This document shows, one piece after another, positions 13,857 to 64,000 of a stretch of 64,000 bases of DNA. The notes beneath the pieces were generated by a model, which saw only the letters and a program-made list of their open reading frames with translations, searched no databases and had not been told where the DNA came from. Position 1 is the first letter of the stretch, and each line of letters starts with the position of its first letter. This DNA comes from Eledone cirrhosa (taxonomy: Eukaryota), in assembly GCA_964016885.1 (NCBI GenBank), contig OZ024744.1, forward strand, positions 34,224,001 through 34,288,000, in the 5' to 3' direction. The translations under genes and the position numbers were made by a program.

Positions 13857-14790
13857 GTGTGTGTGTGTGTGTGTATGTATATATTATGCGTATGTGTACG
13901 TGTCTTTATATCCGTGTTTTTGACATCTCGGTTTTATGTTTTGTTCCTTATTTCTTCTCCCCCCCCTTCCTTTTTTTACTTACTCAGTTTCATGCGTGGG
14001 CATGCAAACAGGTTTATATGCGTGAGTATAAGTATGTCTGTGTGTGTGTGTGTATGGACGTATCGAACGTATGGATGTGTAAGTGCGCGTGTGTATATAA
14101 GCATAATTATTTTTACATTTCTTTTGTGAGACATGCGTGTCTGTGTATGTATGTACCCCTTTTTTGTCTTCTTTTCTTTAATGTTTTCTTTCTAAAAATA
14201 TTTTTTCTTTCTAATTCATCGTTATTATATTTTTATAAATATATCGAGACTGATACTTTTCTTTTAATTATTACACTCCCTTACCTCCTTTCTTTCCGCA
14301 TCTAAGTGTACGAGTGTGCAGGCGTTTTATGCGCGCGCCTTCATATTCATATATTTATGATGTAACCATTTCTGTCTGTATATTACAGACATATAGATAC
14401 ATTTGCCCTAAATTTTAGAAATACGCACACTTTCTCACTATACATATACATGTGCGTATATACATATATGCACATCTGTGAGCGTATATACATACATATA
14501 CACACACCTAACTATATTTCTTGATAGATTTTTATATATTTCAATTTCTATTTCATTTATCTATATCTTTTTTTGATTTTCTTGATGAGTTTTTCTAAGT
14601 ATTTACCCATGTTTTATATTGCCTCGTCTGACGAACGAATGAAGTCGTTTATTTCGTATTCGCCTCATTCGGGAAACCTCTGGTAATGAGGTAATTATAT
14701 TGTATTGATTTTTATACATTAAATTTTGCTCTGATACTTACATAGAGCACTCTTCATTTCTATGACCTTTTCTGTTTCCAACGGAAATTT

Positions 14791-14908: not shown

Positions 14909-14982
14909 GCTGTGATATATATTTCAATGACGACACTGGCCACACTGTTCTGTGTGCGAGTGTCGTGACATCATCAGACAGC
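14909..14982 (-). ncRNA. Type I hammerhead ribozyme in a short (TA)n-flanked insert (about 14857-15030)
   Basis: Minus: GCTGT-CTGATGA-tgtcACGACACT...AGTGTCGTcatt-GAAA-tatat-ATC-ACAGC. Confidence 0.75.
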
Positions 14983-25173: not shown

Positions 25174-25178
<5 letters not shown>

Positions 25179-25284
25179 AACCAGTAAGACCCCGACAGCT
25201 GAGCTCAAGCCGTTTCGACGGCTAATTCAGAATTAGCCGTCGAAACGGCTTGAGCTCAGCTGTCGGGGTCTTACTGGTTCCTAT
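25174..25284. repeat. Perfect 111-bp palindrome (55-bp arms, 1-nt centre at 25229) between (TA)n tracts
   Basis: ATAGGAACCAGTAAGACCCCGACAGCTGAGCTCAAGCCGTTTCGACGGCTAATTC-A-GAATTAGCCGTCGAAACGGCTTGAGCTCAGCTGTCGGGGTCTTACTGGTTCCTAT. Confidence 0.95.
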
Positions 25285-25360
25285 TACCCACTCTACTACC
25301 TCAAGTATTGAGTACTTTGGTGCGTTATGGTCCACCTGGTTCCTTACCACATTTCCTTCG

Positions 25361-26364: not shown

Positions 26365-26368
<4 letters not shown>

Positions 26369-28490
26369 ACAGGGAGAAAGAGACGATTATTAGGAAGAAA
26401 AATATACTTTTTTCCTTTTTTGTTTCTCTCTTTTTTCTGGGTTAGAAAATGATTAAAACGAAATGTTTTACTTTGTGTGAAGTGTTAAGGTATTAGTTGA
26501 TTTATTTATTATTTAACAATCGCATTTATTTATCTATTTATATATTTAATAATTGTCTATTACCGGTTTCAGCATTTTTATGCATTATCAAATGATAGTG
26601 AAATGTATTAGTGTGGTGTCGCACATGTTAAACAGAAGGTGCAGAAAGAATAATGTTATTTACAAACAAGGTTTATGAAGTGAAAAGAAAAAAGAAAAGA
26701 ACGTGCATAATGTAGAGCATAAAAAAATCAATGGATAGGGCCTGCAAGCAAGCCACAGAGGTTTACATCAATATAGCCCCCCCCCCCCTGATGACCTTAA
26801 ATTAAGACCCATAATAGCAGGCACCACATGTGAAATCCACCGCCTAAGCAACTTCCAAGATATTCTGCTTAAACCTTTCCTAAAACACATAAAAAGCTTC
26901 ATAAGGGACGACCTTGACATGCTCAACCACCTCCCAACAACACTCAATAATGAACATACCCTACTAGTAACCTTTGATGTCATCAATTTATATTCCAATA
27001 TCCCACACAACCTAGGTATAGAGGCAATACAATTCTGGCTTGAAAATTTCCCTAGTGAACTCCCACAGCGCATCCCTAAAGAATTTGTGTTGGAGGGACT
27101 CAAATTCATCTTGGAAAACAATTTCTTCGAATTCAATGCCCAATACTACAGACAGAAATCTGGGACTGCCATGGGCACGAAGGTGGCCCCCTCATACGCC
27201 AACATTGTCATGGGATATTTGGAAACCATTCTCTACCGCAAAGTTCTAGACAAATACGGCAACCACTTCTACCAACACATAGAAAAGAACTGGAAGAGAT
27301 ATCTGGACGACTGCTTCATCCTCTGGCATGAAAGTATAGATAGACTGATTGAGTTTAAAACCCTTCTGAATGGACTCAACACAAACTTACAATTCACAAT
27401 GGATCACAGCCATGAACAACTCCCTTTCCTATAGAAACAGACATATACTACAAACCCACAGACTCCAAACAATACCTTCCATTCAACTCGTGCCACCCTA
27501 GATACACCAAAATGGCAATTCCTAGCCAGAAGGATCTGCACAATAGTTTCAGATAAATACACATGCTACACACGACTAGAAGAATTAAAAAACACACTTA
27601 TCAGCAGAAACTACCCACCGTCTATAAATCACAAATTAAAATACAGGAATACAGAAAGATTGCATTTAGTGAACATATCACCAATTGTGCTCACAACCAA
27701 CATCCAAACTTTAACATTTTCTCCATTTACAAATTCATAGACAACGCTACTTTCATCCAACGTACCAATAAGGAAACATATTTCATTAACAAATTCCAAC
27801 CCCTACTTAATACTCTAAAAATCGGACCAATCTAAAACTGCAACAAACAATCAAACATTTACAAGTGTTACCTCCCTCACACCCTACCTAATCCTTTTTC
27901 TTAAATAAATTAAATATCATCCAGCAAGAATTGCTTCCCCTGCATATTAACTCTCTAAAAAGGGAAATCATATCAAACCTCAGTCCACCATTTGCCCCCA
28001 TCATGGAATCATGGATCAACTAAGCACTCTTGCTATATTAACACATTTTGATCTGCTTAACTTCAAGAACTATGCCTGTAAATAACATTATTTTTTCTTC
28101 CACATTGACTTTTCATGCTCTACATTATGCACGTTTTTTTTCCTTTTTTTTTTCTTTTCACTTCATAAACCTTCTTTGTAAATAACATTATTCTTTCTGC
28201 ACCTTCTGTTTAACATGTGCGACACCACACTAATACATTTCACTATCATTTGATAATGCATAAAAATGCTGAAACCGGTAATAGACAATAATTAAATATA
28301 TAAATAGATAAATAAATGCCATTGTTAAATAATAAGTTAATCAACTAATACCTTAACACTTCACACAAAGTAAAACATTTCGTTTTAATCATTTTCTAAC
28401 CCAGAAAAAAGGGAGAGAAACAAAAAAGGAAAAAAGTATATTTTTCTTTCTAATAATCGTCTCTTTCTCCCTGTTTTCATATATATATAT
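26365..28490 (+). mobile_element. Penelope-like element (RT core, internally deleted, GIY-YIG remnant) between about 365-bp inverted pLTRs
   Basis: LRPIIAG, LVTFDVINLYSNIPH, QKSGTAMGTKVAPSYANIVM, WKRYLDDCF, YFINKFQPLLN; 26365-26730 is inverted at 28105-28480; (TA)n flanks. Confidence 0.9.
28243..28284 (+). ncRNA. Hammerhead variant with UUGAUAA core (U3-A8); inverted copy at 26557-26598(-)
   Basis: CTAT-cat-TTGATAA-tGCAT aaaa ATGCt-GAAAC-CG-GTA-ATAG; palindromic ACCGGT. Confidence 0.55.
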
Positions 28491-29928: not shown

Positions 29929-30536
<608 letters not shown>

Positions 30537-43646: not shown

Positions 43647-43674
43647 GTAAGGTTTATGTATATATATATATATA

Positions 43675-44301
43675 TGATGAAATTTACTTTCCGTTGGAAA
43701 TTCTCTGAATTTCTAATCTTTTGTAAACGGAAACCGCCGGTAATAGCATTATGAACAGGTAGATATTTAGATAATTTTCTAATTTATTTAAAGGATTGTT
43801 TAATGTTTGTTTGTTCTGCTCATCAATTTTTATAGTTCTGGTATCTCGAATTAGTACCATAGAACAACAATTATATTATAGACACCCTATATATCTCTAT
43901 GGGTACTTAGTACTCAGAGAGATATTTACCTCATTTTTATATATTCTCCAATCTATGTAGAGAAAAAATTCGTTGTTGCTTACTGCTATTTTTTTAGCAG
44001 CAAAGCCATCAACACGTCTGTAATATTCCCGCTTTCACTAGCGGCCGGTTCACGTGTGGGGTACTTTAATGGCCATAACTCATACGAGCTGGTAGTTGGC
44101 ATTATATTTGCAGACCGTGGGTCTTAGTCCTATAGGATGGAAATAGCTATCTGATGAACTTTACTTTCCGTTGGAAATTCTCTGAATTTCTAATCTTTTG
44201 TAAATGGAAACCGCCGGTAATAGCATTATGAACAGGTAGATATTTAGATAATTTTTGTAATTTATTTAAAGGATTGTTTAATGTTTGTTTGTTCTGCTCA
44301 T

Positions 44302-44305
<4 letters not shown>
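43675..44305 (+). mobile_element. Retrozyme-like element: 477-bp non-coding monomer plus about 150-bp direct repeat
   Basis: 43675-43826 resembles 44152-44305; predicted GUA cleavage triplets at 43740-43742 and 44217-44219 are exactly 477 nt apart; (TA)n on both sides. Confidence 0.85.
44146..44224 (+). ncRNA. Type I hammerhead ribozyme
   Basis: GCTAT-CTGATGA-acTTTAC..TTGGAAATTC tct GAATTTCTAA..GTAAAtg-GAAAC-CGCCG-GTA-ATAGC. Confidence 0.8.
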
Positions 44306-44373
<68 letters not shown>

Positions 44374-44468
44374 GTAGAACACTGGAAGGTAATATCCGTA
44401 GTGGTAGAGCACTCAGTCCATGGGACGAGTTAGGTAGAATTGGTTACACAACAGTTAGTTCACCATAC

Positions 44469-44506
44469 CGAGAACAATTGTTTCACCTTAGCAGATCCTC
44501 AGCTCG
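44469..44506 (-). ncRNA. Minimal type I hammerhead
   Basis: Reverse complement of 46003-46040 with one substitution. Confidence 0.65.
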
Positions 44507-46002
44507 TAATGGACATGGTTATACGGAACAGGAAGGACAACCGTACGAACGCGCATGCGCAGAAACCGTCACTTCACACAGGCTAAAAAGCGTGCGAGAT
44601 TTGTAAGGGAGATAACTCCGAAAGTCCGAAAAGTTTCTAGTTGACAAGAAAATTAGGATGTTTTTGTGATTCAATCCGGAGCTTTGTAGTTATGTAAGAG
44701 GTGTTTCGAGACGTGGACAACGTGTGAAGAATTCATTTCTCGTGTTTAGGCAATCACTATTGCATAATCTCTTGAAGATTATTTATTCGTTCATCAATAC
44801 ATAGTCCACACGACGGATTGTCCCTTGTGTGTGGCTTGGACTTAGCGATGGCTTTCCATTGAATGGAGTAGTCTATACTTGAGTCCTTGAGGGACCATAC
44901 GCGGCTCGCGTGTTTCGTGGATGAACGTCTGTCCGGGTACCTAAAGGTCGACTGGTGGTTCAGGAAGCGTTCCTTAAATCGGCCCTCCGCGATACCCATA
45001 TATGATTTGACCTCCTGTGGTTGATTTGGTCGGTTGGAAGTGACCACAGCTTCATAAATTACAGCGGGTGTGTTGCAATGCTGTTGAAGGGGACAAGCTT
45101 CGGGCTTACGGCAATAGCACCCTGGTGGGGTGTTGCTCTTAGCGCTGTTGGTGATGTGGGCCTTCATGTTCTTAGCGCAGGAGTATCCTAGTTTTACTTT
45201 GTGTCGGTTAAAGATGGAGCGGTATTTATGACCTATTTACGAAGTTTCTAAAAACAGTGGGAGGGTGGCATGAGTCCTTGTGAATGTAATTGAGTTTTTC
45301 GTTTAGCTTATGGAAGGGTCTGTAGGTGTGTGTGCGAAGGTCTAAATTAATGTCTAAGAAATCTACGCTAGAGAGGTTGGTAGCTACTGTTATCCTAAAT
45401 CCTATCTCATTGAAGGTAGAAATTAAGTCTTTTTTAAACCGGTCGAGGTCGTGACCACTTTTATGGCTCGATAAGGTCAGTTCGCCGTCGCGGTATATTC
45501 CCGTGTGGAAGTCCGGGAATCTAACACGTAATATATCTAAAATAAATAGGCCAACCAAGTCGCATACGTCAGCACTGTCAAACGATCCCATAGAGACGTG
45601 GAATAGGTCTGAAGTTGTTGACTTCTTTGCCCAGGCTACTCCGTAGTTGAAGAGGAGGGTTTTCCGGCAGTGAGCGATGATTTCCCTGTCTAAACCATCG
45701 ACGGTGGTGTAAGTGGTAGCGAAGTCCAACGCTTTGTTTAACAGGGTCTCTGAGATCGACGGGTAAAAATCAACAATGTCAAACTGTGTGAACTTCGCTT
45801 TTTTGGATTTGAAGGAGTTGAACCACTTACATAACTTCAAAGCTCCGGATTGAATCACAACATCCTAATTTTCTTATCAACTAGAAACTTTTCGGACTTT
45901 CGCCTCTCGCATGCTTTTTAGTATTGCCTGTGTGAAGTGACGGTTTCTGCGCATGCGCGTTCGTACAGTTGTCCTTCCTGTTCCGTATAACCATGTCCAT
46001 TA

Positions 46003-46040
46003 CGAGCTGAGGATCCGCTAAGGTGAAACAATTGTTCTCG
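46003..46040 (+). ncRNA. Minimal type I hammerhead
   Basis: CGAG-CTGAGGA-tCC gctaa GGt-GAAAC-AATT-GTT-CTCG; palindromic AACAATTGTT. Confidence 0.7.
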
Positions 46041-46066
46041 GTATGGTGAACTAACTGTTGTGTATA

Positions 46067-48219
<2,153 letters not shown>

Positions 48220-51789: not shown

Positions 51790-52560
51790 CTAAGTTAGTC
51801 AGCAAGCCAGCAAGCAAACCAGTAAGCAAGCCAGCAAGCAAGCCAGTAAGCAAGTCAGTAAACAAGTCAGTAAGCAAGTCATTAAGCAAGCCAGCAAGGC
51901 AGTCATAACAAGCCAGCAAGCAAGCCAGACTTAGCAAGCCAGTCATAGCAAGGCAGTAAGTAAGCTAGTCATATCAAGCCAGCCATTGCAAGCCAGCAAG
52001 CAAGCCATTCATAGCAAGCCACCAAGCAAGCCAGTCATAGCAAGCCAGTAAGTAAGCTAGTCATAGCAAGCCAGCAAGCAATCAATCCATAGCAAGCCAG
52101 CAAGCAAGCCAGCCATTGCAAGCCAGCAAGCAAGCCATTCACAGCAAGCCAGCAAGCAAGCCATTCATAGTAAGCCAGCAAGCCAGCAAGCAAGCCAGTC
52201 ATAGCAAGCCAGGAACCAAGCCAGTCATAACAAGCCAGCAAGCAAGCCAGTCATAGCAAGCCAGCAAGCAAGCCAGTCATAGCAAGCTAGCAACCAAGTC
52301 AGTCATAGTAAGCCAGTAGGTAAGCCAGTCATAGCAAGTTAGCAAGCAAACCAGCAACAAAGCCAGCTATAGCAAGCCAGCCATAGCAAGACATCAAGCA
52401 AGCCAGCCATAGCAAACCAGCAAGCAAGTCAGTAAGCAAGCAAGCCAGCAACAAAGCCAGCTATAGCAAGCTAGTCATAGCAAGACATCAAACAAGCCAG
52501 CCATAGCAAACCAGCAAACAAGTCAGTAAGCAAGTTAGCCCACTAGTCAACTAGCAAACA
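51790..52560. repeat. AGC(A/C)-based minisatellite (CAAGCCAGCAAG / CAAGCCAGTCATAG units)
   Basis: Direct inspection of the tandem 4-nt-period variants. Confidence 0.9.
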
Positions 52561-53873: not shown

Positions 53874-56800
53874 TATCTCAGCTTCTAATACTAGAGTTGT
53901 ATTACAATGTAAGCTGTTCACTACCAGTGAACTGAGATAACACTACTTATCTCAGCGTCTAACACTAGAGTTGTATTACGGTGTTGTTCACTACCAGTGA
54001 ATTAAGGTAACACACCTTATCTCAGCGTCTAACCCTAGAGATGTATTACAGTGTTGTTCACTACCAGTGAATTGAGATAACACCCCTTCTCTCAGCTTCT
54101 AATACTAGAGATGTATTACAGTGTTAGATGTTCACTACCAGTGAACTGAGATAACACCCCTTATCTCAGCTTCTCATACTAGAGATGTATTACAGTGTTG
54201 TTCACTACCAGTGAACTGAGATAACACCCCTTATCTCAGCTTCTTATACTAGAGATGTATTACAGTGTTGTTCACTACAAGTGAACTGAGATAACACCCC
54301 TTATCTCAGCTTCTAATACTAGAGATGTATTACAGTGTTATATATTCACTACCAGTGAACTGAGATAACACCCCTTATCTCAGCTTCTCATACTAGAGAT
54401 ATATTACAGTGTTGTTCACTACCAGCGAACTGAGATAACACCTCTTATCTCAGGTTCTAACACTAGAGATGTGTTACTGTGTTGTTCAATACCAGTGAAC
54501 TGAGATAACACCCCCTATCTCTGCTTCTAATACTAGAGATGTATTACAGTGTTAGCTGTTCACTACATGTGAACTGAGATAATACCTTTATATCTGAGAG
54601 TCTAACACTTGAGATGTATTACAGCGTTGGCTGTTCACTACCACTGAACTGAAATAACACCCCTTATCTCAACGTCTAACACGAGATGTATTACAGTGTT
54701 GTTCACTACCAGTAAACTGAGGTGACACCCCTTATCTCAGCTTCTAATACTAGAGATGTATAACAATGTTAACTGTTCACTACTAGTGAACTCAGATAAC
54801 ACCCCTTATCTTAACTTCTAATATTACAGATATATTACAGTGTTAGCTGTTCACTACCAGTGAACTGAGGTAACACCTCTTATCTCAGCGTCTAATACTA
54901 GAGATGTATTACAGTGTTGTTCACTACCAGTGAACTGAGATAAAACCCCCTCATCTCAGCTTCTAACAATAGAGTTGTATTACAGTGTTGTTCACTACCA
55001 GTAAACTGAGATAACACCCCTTATCTCAGCTTCTAATACTAGAGATGTATTACAGTGTTAGATGTTCACTACCATTGAACTGATGTAACACCCCTTATCT
55101 CAGCGTCTAACACTAGAGATGTATTAAAGTGTTAGCTGTTCACTACTAGTGAACTGATATAACACCCCTTATCTCAGCTTCTAATACTAGAGATGTATTA
55201 CCGTGTTAGCTGTTCACTACTAGTGAACTGAGATAACACCCCTTATCTCAGCTTCTAATACTAGAGATGTATTACAGTGTTAGATGTTCATTACCAGTGA
55301 ACTGAGACATCACCCCTTATCTCAGCTTCTAATACTAGAGGTGTATTACGGTGTTAGCTGTTCATTACCAGTGTACTGAGAAAACAACCCTTATCTCAGC
55401 TTCTAATACTAGAGATGTATTACAGTGTTGTTCAATACCAGGGAACTGAGATAACACCCTTATCTCAGCTTCTAATAGTAGAGATGTATTACAGTGTTAG
55501 ATGTTCACTACGATTGAACTGATGTAACAGCACTTAGCTCAGCGTCTAAGAGTAGACTTGTATTACATTGTTGTTCACTACCAGTGAACTGAGGTAACAC
55601 CCCTTATCTCAGCTTCTAATACTAGAGATGTATTACAGTATTGTTCACTACCAGTGAACTGAGGTAACACCCCTTATCTCAGCGTCTAACACTAGAGATG
55701 TATTACGGCGTTAGATGTTCCCTACCAGTGAACTGAGGTAACACCTCTTATCTCAGCGTCTAACACTAGAGATGTATTACAGTCTTGTTCACTACCAGTG
55801 AACTGAGAGCACACCACATATTGCAGTTTCTAATACTAGAGATGTATTACAGTGTTGTTAACTTCCAGTGAACTGAGATAACACCCCTTATCTCAGCTTC
55901 TAATACTAGAGATGTATTACAGTGTTAGATGTTCACTACGATTGAACTGATGTAACAGCACTTAGCTCAGCGTCTAAGAGTAGAGTTGTATTACAGTGTT
56001 GTTCACTACCAGTGAACTGAGATAACACCCCTTATCTCAGCGCCTAATACTAGAGATGTATTACAGCGTTGTTCACTACCAGTGAACTGAGATAACACCC
56101 CTTAACTGAGCTCCTAATACTAGAGATGTATGACAGTGTTAGATGTTTATTACCAGTGAACTGAGATAACACCCCTTATCTCAGCTTCTAATACTAGAGA
56201 TACATTACAGTGTTAGCTGTTCACTACCAGTGAACTGAGATAACACCCTTTATCTCAGCTTCTAATACTAGAGATGTATTACAGTCTAAGCTGTTCACTA
56301 CCAGTGAACTGAGATAACACCCCTTATCTCAGCTTCTAATACTAGAGATGTATTACAGTGTTAGATGTTCACTAACAGTGAACTGAGACAACACCCCTTA
56401 TCTCAGCGTCTAAGAGTAGAGTTGTATTACATTGTTGTTCACTACCAGTGAACTGAGGTAACACCCATTATGTCAGCGTCTAACAGTAGAGATGTATTAC
56501 AGTGTTGTTCACTACCTGTGAACTGAGATAACACCCCTTATCTCAGCTTCTAATACTAGAGATATATTACAGTATTGTTCACTACCAGTGAACTGAGGTA
56601 ACACCCCTTATCTCAGCGTCTAACACTAGAGATATATTACAGTGTTAGATGTTCACTACCAGTGAACTTAGATAACCCCTTATCTCAGCGTCTAACACTA
56701 GAGATGTATTACAGCGTTAGATGTTCCCTACCAGTGAACTGAGGTAACACCCCTTATCTCAGCGTCTAACACTAGAGATGTATTACAGTCTTGTTCACTA

Positions 56801-59800
56801 CCAGTGAACTGAGAGCACACCACTTATCGCAGTTTCTAATACTAGAGATGTATTACAGTGTTGTTAACTTCCAGTGAACTGAGATAACACCCCTTAACTC
56901 AGCTTCTAATACTAGCGATATATTACAGTGTTAGCTGTTCACTACCAGTGAACTGAGATAAAATCCCTTATCTCAGCGTCTAATACTAGAGATGTATTAC
57001 AGTGTTGTTCACTACCAGTGAACTGAGATAACACCCCTTATCTGAGCTCCTAATACTAGAGATGTATGACAGTGTTAGATGTTTATTACCAGTGAACTGA
57101 GATAACACCCCTTATCTCAGCTTCTAATACTAGAGATATATTACAGCGTTAGCTGTTCACTACCAGTGAACTGAGATAACACCCCTTATCTCAGCTTCTA
57201 ATACTAGAGATGTATTACAGTGTAAGCTGTTCACTACCAGTGAACTGAGATAACACCCCTTATCTCAGCTTCTAATACTAGAGATGTATTACAGTGTAAG
57301 CTGTTCACTACCAGTGAACTGAGGTAACACCCATTATGTCAGCGTCTAACAGTAGAGATGTATTACAGTGTTGTTCACTACCTGTGAACTGAGATAACAC
57401 CCCTTATCTCAGCTTCTAATACTAGAGATGTATTACAGTGTGGTCACTACCAGGGAACTGAGATAACACCTTTATCTCAGCTTCTAATACTAGAGATGTA
57501 TTACAGTGTAAGCTGTTCACTACCAGTGAACTGAGATAACACCCCTTATCTCAGCTTCTAATACTAGAGATGTATTACAGTGTTAGATGTTCACTAACAG
57601 CGAACTGAGACAACACCCCTTATCTCAGCGTCTAACACGAGATGTATTACAGTGTTGTTCACTACCAGTGAACTGAGGTAACACCCCTTATCTCAGCTTC
57701 TAATACTAGAGATGTATTACGGTGTTAACAGTTCACTGCCGGTAAACTTAGATGACACCCCTTATCTCAGATTCTAATACTAGAGATGTATTACAGTGTT
57801 AGCTGTTCACGTTCAGTGAACTGAGATAACACCCATTATCTTAGCTTCTAATACTAGAGATATCTGATAGTGTAAGCTGTTCACTACCAGTGAACTGAGA
57901 TAACACCCCTTATCTCAGCGTCTAACGCTAGAGATGGATTACAGTGTTGTTCACTACCAGTGAACTGTGATAACACCCCTTATCTCACTTTCTAACAATA
58001 GAGTTGTATTACAGTGTTGTTCACTACCAGTGAACTGAGATAACACCCCATATCTCAGCTTCTAATACTAGAGATGTATTATAGTGTTAGATGTTCACTA
58101 CCAGTGAACTGAGATAAAATCCCTTATCTCAGCGTCTAATACTAGAGATGTATTACAGTGTTGTTCACTACCAGTGAACTGAGATAACAGCCCTTATCTG
58201 AGCTCCTAATACTAGAGATGTATGAGAGTGTTAGATGTTTATTACCAGTGAACTGAGATAACATCTCTTATCTCAGCTTCTAATACTAGAGATATATTAC
58301 AGTGTAAGCTGTTCACTACCAGTGAACTGAGATAACACCCCTTATCTCAGCTTCTAATACTAGAGATGTATTACAGTGTTAGATGTTCACTAACAGTGAA
58401 CTGAGACAACACCCCTTATCTCAGCGTCTAACACGAGATGTATTACAGTGTTGTTCACTACCAGTGAACTGAGGTAACACCCCTTATCTCAGCTTCTAAT
58501 ACTAGAGATGTATTACGGTGTTAACTGTTCACTGCCGGTAAACTCAGATGACACCCCTTATCTCAGATTCTAATACTAGAGATGTATTACAGTGTTAGCT
58601 GTTCACTAGCAGTGAACTGACATAACACCCCTTATCTCAGCTTCTATTACTACAGATGTATTACAGTGTTAGATGTTCACGTTCAGTGAACTGAGATAAC
58701 ACCCATTATCTTAGCTTCTAATACTAGAGATATCTGACAGTGTAAGCTGTTCACTACCAGTGAACTGAGATAACACATCTTATCTCAGCGTCTAACGCTA
58801 GAGATGTATTACAGTGTTGTTCAATACCAGTGAACTGTGATAACACTCCTAATCTCACCTTCTAACAATAGAGTTGTATTACAGTGTTGTTCACTACCAG
58901 TGAACTGAGATAACACACCTTATCTCAGCTTCTCATACTAGAGATATATTACAGTGTTGTTCACTACCAGTGAACTGAGATAACACACCTTATCTCAGCT
59001 TCTAATACTAGATATGAATTACAGTGTTAGATGTTCACTTCCAGTGAACTGAGATAACATCACTTATCTTAGCGTCTAACACTAGTGATGTATTACAGTG
59101 TTAGCTGTTCACTACCAGTGAACTGAGGTAACACCCCTTATCTCAGCGTCTAACCCTAGAGATGTATTACAGTGTTGTTTACTACCAGAGAACTGAGATA
59201 ACCCCCTTATCTCAGCTTCTAATACTAGAGATGTATTACAGTGTTAGATGTTCACTACGATTGAACTGATGTAACAGCACTTAGCTCAGCGTCTAAGAGT
59301 AGAGTTGTATTACATTGTTGTTCACTACCAGTGAACTGAGGTAACACCCATTATGTCAGCGTCTAACAGTAGAGATGTATTACAGTGTTGTTCACTACCT
59401 GTGAACTGAGATAACATCCTTTATCTCAGCTTCTAATACTAGAGATGTATTACAGTATTGTTCACAACCAGTGAACTGAGATAACACCCCTTATCTCAGC
59501 TTCTAATACTAGAGATGTATTACAGTGTTAGATGTTCACTAACAGTGAACTGAGACAACACCCCTTATCTCAGCGTCTAACACGAGATGTATTACAGTTT
59601 TGTTCACTACCAGTGAACTGAGGTAACACCCCTTATCTCATCTTCTAATACTAGAGATGTATTACGGCGTTAACTGTTCACTGCCGGTAAACTCAGATGA
59701 CACCCCTTATCTCAGATTCTAATACTAGAGATGTATTACAGTGTTAGCTGTTCACGTTCAGTGAACTGAGATAACACCCATTATCTTAGCTTCTAATACT

Positions 59801-62800
59801 AGAGATATCTGACAGTGTAAGCTGTTCACTACCAGTGAACTGAGATAACACGCCTTATCTCAGATTCAAATACTAGATATGTATTACAGTGTTAGCTGTT
59901 CACTACATATGAACTGAGATAACACCTTTATATCTGAGAGTCTAACACTAGAGATGCATTACAGTCTTAGCTGTTAAGTACCAGTGAACTGAGATAAAAC
60001 CCCTTATCTCAGCGTCTAACACGAGATGTATTACAGTGTTTTTCACTACCAGTGATCTGAGGTAACACCCCTTATCTCAGCTTCTAATACTAGAGATGTA
60101 TAACAGTGTTAACTGTTCACTACCGGTAAACTGAGGGGACACCCCTTATCTCTGCTTCGAATACTAGAGATGTACTGCAGTGTTAGATGTTCACTACCAG
60201 TGAACTGAGATAACACCCCTTATCTCAGCGTCTAACACTAGAGATGTATTACAGTGTTGTTCACTACCAGTGAACTGAGAGCACACCACTTATTGCAGTT
60301 TCTAATACTAGAGATGTATTACAGTGTTAGATGTTCACTACCAGTGAACTGAGATAACACACCTTATCTCAACGTCTAACACTAGAGAAATATTACAGTG
60401 TTGTTCACTACCAGTGAACTGAGGTACCACCCCTTTATCTCAGCTTCTAATACTAGAGATGTATTCCATTGTTAACTGTTCACTACCAGTCAACTGAGAT
60501 AACACGCCTTATCTCAGCTTCTAATACTAGAGATGTTTTACAGCGTTAACTGTTCACTACCAGTGAACTGAGGTAACACCCCTTATCTCAGCTTCTCATA
60601 CTAGATATGTATTACAGTGTTGTTCACTACCAGTGAACTGAGATAACACGCTTTATCTCAGCTTCTAATACTAGAGATGTATTAGTGTTGTTCACTACCA
60701 GTGAATTGAGATAACACCCCTTATTTCAGCTTCTAACACTAGAGATGTATTACAGTGTTGTTCACTACCAGTGAACTGAGATAGCACCCCTTATCTCAGC
60801 GTCTAACACTAGAAATGTATTACAGTGTTATCTGTTCACTACTAGTCAACTGAGGTAACACCCCTTATCTTAGCTTCTAATACTAGAGATGTATTACCGT
60901 GTTGTTCACTACCAGTGAACTGAGATAACACCCCTTATCTCAGCTTCTAACACTAGAGATGTATTACAGTGTTAACCTTTCACTACCAGTGAACTGAGAT
61001 AACACCTCTCATCTCAGCGTGTGACACTGGAGATGTATTACAGTGTCAACTGTTCACTACCAGTGAACTGAAATAACACCCCTTATCTCAGCTTCTAACA
61101 CTAGAGATGTATTACAGTGTAAGCTGTTCATTACCAGTGAACTGAGATAACACCCCTTATCTCAGCTTCTAATACTAGAGATGTATTACAGTGATAGATG
61201 TTCACTAGCAGTGAACTGAGACAACACCCCTTATCTCAGCGTCTAACACGAGATGTATTACAGTGTTGTTCACTACCAGTGAACTGAGGTAACACCCCTT
61301 ATCTCAGCTTCTAATACTAGAGATGTATTACAGTGTTAACTGTTCACTGCCGGTAAACTCAGATGACACCCCTTATCTCAGATTCTAATACTAGAGATGT
61401 ATTACAGTGTTAGATGTTCACTACCTGTGAACTGGGATAACACCCCTTATCTCAGCGTCTAACACTAGAGATGTATTACAGTATTGTTCACTACCAGTGA
61501 ACTGAGATAACACCCCTTTCTCAGTTTCTAATACTAGAGATGTATTACAGTGTTAGATGTTCACTACCAGTGAACTGTGATAACACCCCTTATCTCACCG
61601 TCTAACACTAGAGATGTATTACAGTCTTGTTCACTACCAGTGAACTGAGGTACCACCCCTTTATCTCAGCTTCTAATACTAGAGATGTATTCCAGTGTTA
61701 ACTGTTCACTACCAGTAAACTTCGATAACCCCACTTATCTCAGCTTCTAATACTAGAGATGTATTACAGTGTTAGATGTTCACTAACAGTGAACTGAGGT
61801 AACACCCATTATCTTAGCGTCTAACAGTAGAGATGTATTACAGTGTTGTTCACTACCTGTGAACTGAGATAACATCCTTTATCTCAGCTTCTAATACTAG
61901 AGATGTATTACAGTATTGTTCACTACCAGTGAACTGAGATAACACCCCTTATCTGAGCTTCTAATACTAGAGATATATTACAGTGTTGTTCACTACCAGT
62001 GAACTGAGATAACACACCTTATCTCAGCGTCTAACACTAGAGATGTATTACAGTGTTGTTCAGAGTTAACACCTCTTATCTCAACGTCTAACTCTGGAGA
62101 TGTATTACAGCGTTGTTCTCTACCAGTGAACTGAGAGCACACCACTTATCGCAGTTTCTAATAATAGAGATGTATTACAGTGTTATTAACTACCAGTGAA
62201 CTGAGGTACCACCCCTTATCTCAGCTTCTAATACTAGAGATATATTCCAATGTTAACTGTTCACTACCAGTGAACTGAGATAACACCCCTTATCTCAGCT
62301 TCTAATACTAGAGATATATTACAGCGTTAACTGTTCACTACCAGTGAACTGAGGTAAGACCCCTTATCTCAGCTTCTCATACTAGATATGTATTACAGTG
62401 TTGTTCACTACCAGTGAACTGAGATAACACGCTTTATCTCAGCTTCTAATACTAGAGATGTATTACAGTGTTGTTCACTACCAGTGAACTGAGATAACAC
62501 CCCTTATCTCAGCGTCTAACACTTGAGATGTATTACAGTGTTGTTCACTACCACTAAACTGAGATAACACCCCTTATCTCAGCTTCTAATACTAGAGATG
62601 TATTACAGTGTTGTTCACTACCAGTGAACTGAGATAACACCCTTTATCTCAACTTCTAACACTAGAGATGTATTACAGTGTTGTTCACTACCACTGAACT
62701 GAGATAACACCCCTTATCTCAGCTTCTAATACTAGAGATGTATTACAGTGTTGTTCACTACCAGTGAACTGAAATAACACCCCTTATCTCAGCGTCTAAC

Positions 62801-64000
62801 ACTAGAGATGTATTACAGTATTGTTCACAACCATTGAACTGAGATAACACCCCTTTCTCAGTTTCTATTACTAGAGATGTATTACAGTATTGTTCACTAC
62901 CAGTGAACTGAGATAACACCCCTTATCTCAGCTTCTAATACTAGAGATGTATTACAGTGTTAGCTGTTTCACTACCAGTGAACTGAGGTAACACCCCGTA
63001 ACTAGCTTCTAATACTAGAGATGTACTACAGTGTTAACTGTTCATTAACAGTGAACTGAAATAACACCCCTTATCACAGCTTCTAACACTAGAGATGTAT
63101 TACAGGGATGTTCACTACCAGTGAACTGAGATAACACCCCTTATCTCAGCGTCTAACACTAGAGATGTATTACAGTGTTATCTGTTCACTACTAGTGAAC
63201 TGAGGTAACACCCCTTATCTCAGCTTCTAATACTAGAGATGTATTACCGTGTTCTTCACTACCAGTGAACTGAGATAACACCCCTTTCTCAGTTTCTAAT
63301 ACTAGAGATGTATTACAGTATTGTTCACTACCAGTGAACTGAGATAACACCCCTTATCTCAGCTTTTAATACTAGAGATGTATTACAGTGTTAACTGTTC
63401 ACTATCAGTGAACTGAGATAACACCCCATATCTCAGCTTCTAATACTAGAGATGTATTACAGTGTTGTTCACTACCAATGAACTGAGATAACACCACTTA
63501 TCTCAGCTTCTAATACTAGAGATGTATTACAGTGTAAGCTGTTCACTACCAGTGAACTGAGAGCACACCCCTTATCTCAGCTTCTAATACTAGAGATGTA
63601 TTACAGTGTTAGATGTTCACTACCAGTGAACTGAGATAACACCCCTTATCTCAGCTACTAATTCTAGAGATGTATTACAGTATTAACTATTCACTACCAG
63701 TGAACTGAGGTAACACCCCGTATCTCAGCTTCTAATACTAGAGATATATTACAGTGTTAACTGTTCATTAACAGTGAACTGAAATAACACCACTTATCTC
63801 AGCATCTAACACTAGAGATGTATTACAGTGTTATCTGTTCACTACCAGTGAACTGAGGTACCACCCCTTATCTCAGCTTCTAATACTAGAGATATATTCC
63901 AATGTTAACTGTTCACTACCAGTGAACTGAGATAACACCCCTTATCTCAGCTTCTAATACTAGAGATATATTACAGCGTTAACTGTTCACTACCAGTGAA
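53874..64000. repeat. Satellite DNA array, 70/74-bp monomer, about 140 copies, runs off the window
   Basis: Consensus GTTCACTACCAGTGAACTGAGATAACACCCCTTATCTCAGCTTCTAATACTAGAGATGTATTACAGTGTT with or without a 4-nt AGCT/AGAT/AACT insert; period checked at 54201 to 54271. Confidence 0.98.

Follow-up and report, generated by a model that had tools for sequence, protein, structure and literature searches.

A 477-nt hammerhead-bearing repeat of Eledone cirrhosa as a putative non-LTR retrozyme, probably mobilised by Penelope elements

The window analysed here is a stretch of 64,000 nucleotides from the genome of Eledone cirrhosa (assembly GCA_964016885.1, contig OZ024744.1, positions 34,224,001 to 34,288,000). 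It contains an insertion of 631 nt that is quite probably a 5'-truncated non-LTR retrozyme, inserted in trans by a Penelope RT-endonuclease and copied from a putative circular RNA. Judged by its sequence, the 477-nt family to which this copy belongs is a new metazoan non-LTR retrozyme: it has the fold, occurs in tandem, is non-coding and, at the loci sampled, is unattached to coding elements, while cleavage and the circle are predicted. The family bears on the way in which animal retrozymes are copied into the genome and on the origin of the partial tandems, inverted arms and tails of Penelope elements, and it is of value for tests of the copying of ribozyme circles by Penelope enzymes. It yields base-level predictions for the in vitro Penelope system that already exists: the two RNA sites at which priming would occur, the use of a different one by each DNA end, copying across the ligated junction and the requirement of the ribozyme for a dimer.

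The copy in the window and its predicted ribozymes

The insertion is a single arm of 1.32 units between two (TA)n tracts, with the following features (positions in the window; strand in brackets, where there is one):

43655-43674: left (TA)n target tract
43675-44305 (+): whole insertion, 631 nt, single arm, 3' end of class A
43675-43747 (+): first hammerhead, truncated within CUGAUGA; opening pair of helix II A.C; intact substrate strand
43740-43742 (+): first GUA triplet, predicted cut after 43742
43743-44219 (+): 477-nt monomer, 34.6% G+C, non-coding, strongly folded
43753-43820 (+): long hairpin (unit 11-78) on the 3' side of the cut site, retained in the 466-nt sister family through compensatory changes
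43819-43834 (+): internal copy of 3'-end site A (CUCA..U-run-AUA), then a conserved hairpin; putative reverse-transcription start 1
43929-43944 (+): internal copy of 3'-end site B (CUCA-U-run-AUAUAU), 110 nt downstream of A; putative reverse-transcription start 2
44146-44224 (+): second hammerhead, complete, type I, core intact
44170-44194 (+): upper hairpin of helix II, 10 bp and a closing G-U, beyond a 5x5-nt internal loop; covaries
44217-44219 (+): second GUA triplet, predicted cut after 44219
44297-44305 (+): 3' end of the insertion at site A
44304-44370: right (TA)33.5 target tract

A preliminary description of this DNA had placed a non-coding insert of about 1.3 tandem units with (TA)n flanks at 43675 to 44305, and our measurements agree with it in coordinates, unit number and lack of a reading frame. 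It was also right in setting the GUA triplets 477 nt apart and in seeing the first ribozyme as cut short inside CUGAUGA: the sequence begins with TGATGA immediately 3' of (TA)n, leaving this ribozyme with neither C3 nor the 5' strand of helix I. The extra 10-bp hairpin in stem II of the complete second ribozyme was found again (44170-44180/44184-44194, plus the closing G-U). However, the monomer was called clean, and it is not: the first ribozyme is incomplete, and in each of the two the first pair of helix II is a private mismatch (A.C in the first; C.U in the second, after an A.G opposition), where the rest of the family has A-U, C-G or G-U. Likewise, two hammerhead cleavage sites were said to bound it; both triplets are present, but only one of the ribozymes is whole. 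At the other end, the match to the unit stops at about 44305. The repeated 154 nt differ by three substitutions, a 1-nt indel and the terminal T-run, a separate comparison gave 96% and 95%, and a rare variant at unit position 28 is common to both rounds. The copy is a truncated and damaged but ordinary member of its family, probably a weak one, and its first site is predicted to be one that could be cleaved only with the core of the second ribozyme.

The second ribozyme comprises a 5-bp helix I (44146-44150/44220-44224), CUGAUGA at 44151-44157 followed by an unpaired A, a helix II of six positions (44159-44164/44200-44205) with the internal loop above it, an unpaired G, GAAA at 44207-44210 and a helix III of 3 bp. 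The helix III sequence, ACCG-C-CGGU, is a palindrome. Folded into a hairpin it is calculated to yield -0.6 kcal/mol, against -12.2 kcal/mol for the duplex, as expected for ribozymes working as dimers. Rfam gave no hammerhead match here, both at gathering and at E<=10, and folding of the isolated ribozyme reached z = -1.8 only. Among 23 distinct copies, 96.9% of the cells are paired and 17 changes are double-sided, values that none of 500 shuffles attains, while pair-count and pair-type measures do not beat the shuffles (274/500 and 53/500), all these tests being of a kind that the relatedness of copies inflates. The mismatch rate is 1.2% in the core and 4.8% elsewhere, and the core is intact in 116 of the 133 copies that span it. 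The covariation of the helices and the conservation of the core indicate that the ribozyme is under selection.

Helix II opens with an A.G opposition in 104 and with A.C in 27 of the 138 copies listed; the foot is U.U in the sister family and a canonical G-C in a relative of about 690 nt. In the PLE ribozymes described in PMC4209133 the G10.1-C11.1 pair is conserved, and the axolotl ribozyme HHR_Amex2, with a U.U mismatch at this place, is described as active (PMC7229834; 10.64898/2026.07.22.740005). From the atypical foot and this active precedent, we predict that the ribozyme is likely to be active, but slow or factor-dependent. According to the account in 10.64898/2026.07.22.740005, eight of nine retrozyme dimers tested did not cleave. 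An alternative helix that would hide GAAA (UUUCCGUU/AAUGGAAA) was rejected: it is the best fold only for the truncated first ribozyme and one longer segment, and not for the family majority.

Fixed 3' ends and inverted arms in the family and its relatives

As a monomer, the unit folds with z = -5.4, and none of 100 shuffles is equally stable. The longest ATG frame on the sense strand of the looped unit has 25 aa, and Pol III boxes and TATAAA are absent from the unit. Searching the assembly (3.0 Gb) with the unit gave 2557 first-look candidates, 40 of which were scored, and an exact 21-mer spanning the cut site has 314 copies genome-wide (reversed control, 0). Three sequencing runs, DNA-like in their behaviour, confirm that the unit is highly repeated. 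The loci sampled are the 30 best full-length ones, five more from the similarity list and most of the C1/C2 exact-motif places, with six duplicates left out; 20 additional loci were obtained by a third motif that lies between sites A and B, and are therefore biased to B arms. Arms diverge from the family majority by a median of 3.5%. Two whole ribozymes are held by 10 of 113 loci, the window copy not among them, and these ten are candidates for a better source than that copy.

A single-copy locus, or copies always attached to a coding Penelope ORF, had been named beforehand as observations that would speak against a retrozyme. The exact ribozyme 21-mers show a dispersed, multi-copy unit, and a Penelope ORF fused in sense to the 5' end of the copy was found in none of 133 sampled loci. 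The copies were also expected to be circular permutations of one another. This holds for their 5' ends, which are variable, but permutation is not free, as the 3' ends are fixed at two sites, A at about +88 and B at about +198 nt past the cut site.

The 114 non-redundant loci comprise 53 single arms (35 ending at A, 17 at B and one elsewhere), 53 simple head-to-head inversions, seven complex cases and one without a hit. The simple inversions consist of 42 A+B, two A+A, no B+B and nine with one end unclassified; A is hence paired with B in 42 of 44 classifiable cases (p = 6e-11 against an even split). Loci from the motif lists alone give 31 A+B, one A+A and six unclassified inversions, and the 20 further loci, biased to B and read by eye, add 10 A+B pairs and no B+B. 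Sites A and B both consist of CUCA..UUUUUAUA followed by a hairpin, and the genomic ends lie within the U-run, a position that would fit a pairing of about 6-9 nt with a (TA)n primer. (TA)n occurs within 40 nt on both sides in 98 of 133 loci and on at least one side in 131, and because the insertions lie in (TA)n, target-site duplications, which exceed 4 bp in those metazoan non-LTR retrozymes that have them, are not readable. At the inversion joints the arms overlap by 1-24 nt in 27 of 42 cases. Opposite arms cover common unit positions in 41 of 42 inversions, which argues for two separate cDNAs and not one flipped piece. Arms exceed one unit in 62 of 113 loci, with a maximum of 2.04 units, and the long ones continue into the previous unit. 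Taken together, the two fixed 3' ends and the A/B-paired inverted arms read as the Penelope 'tail' signature and, with the (TA)n targets, they support the earlier suggestion of mobilisation in trans by a Penelope RT.

A relaxed search recovered a 466-nt sister family, 70% identical, with the same fold and the same two 3' ends. Independent folds of the 477- and 466-nt units have 81 of 145 pairs in common (10 with double-sided and 22 with single-sided changes, 17 broken); helix I has changed on both sides, and the palindrome of helix III is kept with its middle base changed. By eye, 10 of 10 sister-family inversions are A+B, in a sample biased to B-ended arms. An exact motif shared by the 466-nt family and a young 457-nt relative has 808 copies. 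This relative is 69% identical to the 477-nt unit, and its locus L210-L211 (G000:C1:156425774-156438447) is a very young two-armed array of 18 + 8 full units, with the A end at +81, the B end at +192 and 19 cut sites in one arm. In the array 17 of 26 units are identical, and two variants present in all 26 were seen in none of the other five 457-nt loci examined, as would be expected after many laps round a single monomer. We also observed a T-to-G change at site B in five of the 26 units, distributed over both arms; the start site may be a hotspot of copying errors. The third relative (L168-L179), with the unit of about 690 nt, has the same palindromic helix III; its cut triplet is GUU, and about 120 nt separate its two ends.

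Template and mode of copying

At 31 subfamily-diagnostic positions, tandem rounds differ in 17 of 360 comparisons, opposite arms in 32 of 488 and different loci in 17640 of 45094, i.e. about 5-7% within a locus and 39% between loci; the values within a locus are close to background mutation (3.9% for tandem rounds and 3.3% for opposite arms). Since tandem rounds and opposite arms share their alleles, each insertion stems from one RNA lineage. A pile-up of 5' ends at the cut site, the sign of a cut linear template, was absent among 179 arms (two at +1, two at 477). The 5' ends are thus not gathered there, suggesting that the template was continuous across the cut site, either as a circle or as an uncut multimer. 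Moreover, at the C1/C2 loci, which were not selected for length, the rate at which arms end rises about 4-fold past 477 nt, both in A arms (41 endings in 15371 nt before, 22 in 2081 nt after) and in B arms (25 in 7271 nt before, 19 in 1425 nt after). The change point lies at 480 (range 470-485) for B arms and at 520 (range 330-545) for A arms, and between the two kinds of arm the step coincides in arm length (KS p 0.89) but not in template position (KS p 0.04). The step is compatible with a polymerase that runs into its own hybrid on completing a lap, and equally with later deletion between tandem repeats. A-to-G editing scars are not in excess among 137 loci of the family (53 A>G and 64 T>C among 567 rare changes) or among 29 of the sister family (25 and 26 of 202). 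As template we favour a circle over an uncut tandem RNA.

The unlikely alternative to a circle is that Penelope copied linear multimeric RNA, uncut and made from tandemly arranged source loci, with no circle and with a ribozyme that is conserved but dispensable for insertion. The anole Penelope provides a precedent, its dominant substrate in vitro being uncut RNA and its ribozyme mutants having no effect on insertion, as reported in PMC11167929; the alleles shared within loci fit a homogeneous tandem transcript, and the atypical helix II foot suits a ribozyme that is not needed. However, such a source should be a long tandem, and no arm in 113 loci exceeds 2.04 units, nor is there a longer array in the exact-match list, which covers all C1 and most C2 places. 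The 5' ends lack a fixed start, the step falls at the same length and not at the same template position in A and B arms, the 26 units of the young 457-nt relative share locus-private variants, and the catalytic core is conserved. We also considered a repeat spread at the DNA level, i.e. a minisatellite or fold-back element moved by recombination and local tandem duplication, in which the hammerhead would be a look-alike by chance. Rfam finds no hammerhead here, and local amplification by unequal crossover is proposed for tandem retrozymes in 10.64898/2026.07.22.740005, but the polarity of the ends (fixed 3', ragged 5'), the strict A+B pairing, and the covarying RNA helices and invariant catalytic core across families only 69-70% identical make this scarcely credible.

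It is also very improbable that the copies are pseudo-LTR fragments of an autonomous coding Penelope element in truncated partial tandem, and for the sampled loci this reading appears largely refuted. The tail, the inverted arms, the (TA)n targets and a ribozyme with palindromic helix III are all described in coding Penelope elements (PMC4209133, PMC3846280, PMC8557442), and at locus L120/L141 a B-ended piece of 45 nt stands head to head with a truncated Penelope ORF. Nevertheless, no sense-fused ORF was seen in the 133 loci, the long arms enter the previous unit and not a coding region in 62 of 113 loci, and the unit has no reading frame. At L120/L141 the terminal repeat of the L141 element itself has no homology to the 477-nt unit, and the small piece carries a private end variant of the neighbouring insertion; a fold-back at the TA tract explains it equally well, and we do not take this chimera as proof of a partner. 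Three loci have a same-strand endonuclease upstream, with (TA)n tracts in between, and Penelope protein matches flank 26 of 133 loci, a consequence of many families using the same (TA)n tracts. None of the 19 Penelope 3' regions lying in the sampled loci represents an autonomous partner homologous to the unit. A start signal shared with a coding Penelope family was discarded (the best match is only 21 nt, on the opposite strand), as were the ORF neighbours at L118 and L103, which belong to other families.

For the retrozyme copied from a circle, we propose that a source locus with two whole ribozymes would be transcribed, and that the ribozymes, dimerised via their palindromic helix III, would release a 477-nt monomer to be ligated into a circle. 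The Penelope protein would cut (TA)n and, as the ends suggest, prime reverse transcription within the RNA at A (+88) or B (+198), U-rich UAUA sites each just 5' of a hairpin. If both DNA ends are used, each would start at a different site, one at A and its partner at B, and microhomology would join the cDNAs head to head, in the architecture observed in the inversions; otherwise a single 5'-truncated arm would be left, as observed in the window copy, which may have started at A and stopped after 1.32 units within the first ribozyme. The observed arms do not stop at the cut site and may be longer than a unit, presumably reflecting continuous copying. More tentatively, with a chance that we put a little below even, the whole clan of 457-690-nt retrozymes may be copied in a two-headed rolling-circle manner by a Penelope dimer, with pausing after a lap and a slow ribozyme. 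One circle, or two sister circles, would then be primed at two fixed sites from both ends of the (TA)n break and copied for one or many laps, after which the two cDNAs would be joined head to head. The length step at one unit would correspond to an RNase H-less reverse transcriptase meeting its own RNA-DNA hybrid, and the A.G or U.U foot of helix II to a ribozyme tuned to be slow, so that the circle stays intact.

Comparison with known elements and neighbours in the window

The 477-nt family has in common with the metazoan non-LTR retrozymes described in PMC7229834 and 10.64898/2026.07.22.740005 one type I hammerhead per non-coding unit, a G+C content <50%, head-to-tail copies, a strongly folded monomer and the coexistence with Penelope elements. 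Its unit is longer than the 170-400 nt given in PMC7229834 and within the 51-972 bp of 10.64898/2026.07.22.740005. It differs from them in its long helix II with internal loop and upper hairpin, and in its copies, most of which are single or inverted arms that are truncated at the 5' end and have their 3' ends fixed at two sites; for retrozymes we found no description of fixed ends or inverted arms in these two articles or in the literature searched. Both articles propose Penelope mobilisation and a circular template without demonstrating either.

For Penelope-like elements, two internal start sites defining an optional tail are described in an endonuclease-bearing Penelope (PMC11167929), and a tail on one of the inverted pLTRs in PMC3846280 and PMC8557442. 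The family resembles such elements in having two start sites downstream of the ribozyme, a tail on one arm, 5' truncation, AT-rich or (TA)n targets and no discernible target duplication in microsatellites. In contrast to them, its unit lacks an RT or GIY-YIG ORF and its tail is about 110 nt, compared with 30-40 bp; its UAUA start sites are able to pair with (TA)n, whereas those of the anole element are given as non-homologous to the target (PMC11167929). With the minimal PLE hammerheads of PMC4209133 it shares a 5-bp helix I, a palindromic helix III, an unpaired base after CUGAUGA and a longer helix II, but in place of G10.1-C11.1 it has A.G or A.C, and its sister family U.U, and helix II bears a second hairpin of 10-11 bp. 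Chlamys elements such as MRC1, as presented in PMC8557442, are likewise non-autonomous, carry pLTRs and are inserted in multicopy head-to-tail form; their dependence on Penelope is the one proposed for the 477-nt family. However, Chlamys is a green-algal clade mostly without canonical hammerheads, and its 3' ends resemble those of autonomous partners, of which none was found for the 477-nt family among the 19 Penelope 3' regions compared.

Several other elements lie in the window. A damaged coding Penelope-like element occupies 44371-46064 on the minus strand, with RT motifs at 45226-45864, a Cys linker and GIY-YIG domain at 44757-45236, its own hammerhead near 44470-44510 and an inverted terminal arm (45822-46064) whose end falls 74 nt before that of the other arm; by its sequence, this is the same two-end pattern in a coding family. 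As source or partner of the insertion it was rejected, as the 3' regions of its relatives have no homology to the unit and its ribozyme is, by eye, of a different type. The plus strand at 46050-47960 holds the 3' part of a second Penelope-like family, whose GIY-YIG (46415-46987) is about 30% identical to that of the former element; a scan of its 1.1-kb 3' region, which ends at (TA)n, gave no hammerhead. Another Penelope-type RT fragment (26739-27434, Pfam RVT_1 E 5e-8) is found within 26365-28480, an element with inverted terminal arms that lies between (TA)n tracts. Other families contribute eight more type I hammerhead motifs, which include three inverted pairs, and one of the eight has the same A.G foot of helix II:

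14623-14690: single motif
14909-14982: single motif
15438-15478/15768-15808: inverted pair
25631-25714/26165-26248: inverted pair
29637-29696/29808-29867: inverted pair

A short palindromic element with a hairpin motif (25177-25360) is of a type also seen beside TA tracts in L007, L020 and L103, and at the 3' end of GIY-YIG-coding elements in L012 and L077. A tRNA-like element at 30071-30142 on the minus strand (Rfam tRNA, 47 bits) is possibly a tRNA-derived SINE, and a similar sequence follows the TA tract in L141. Finally, satellite arrays extend over 53874-64000 and 51801-52534, with units of 70-74 nt and 26 nt, respectively.
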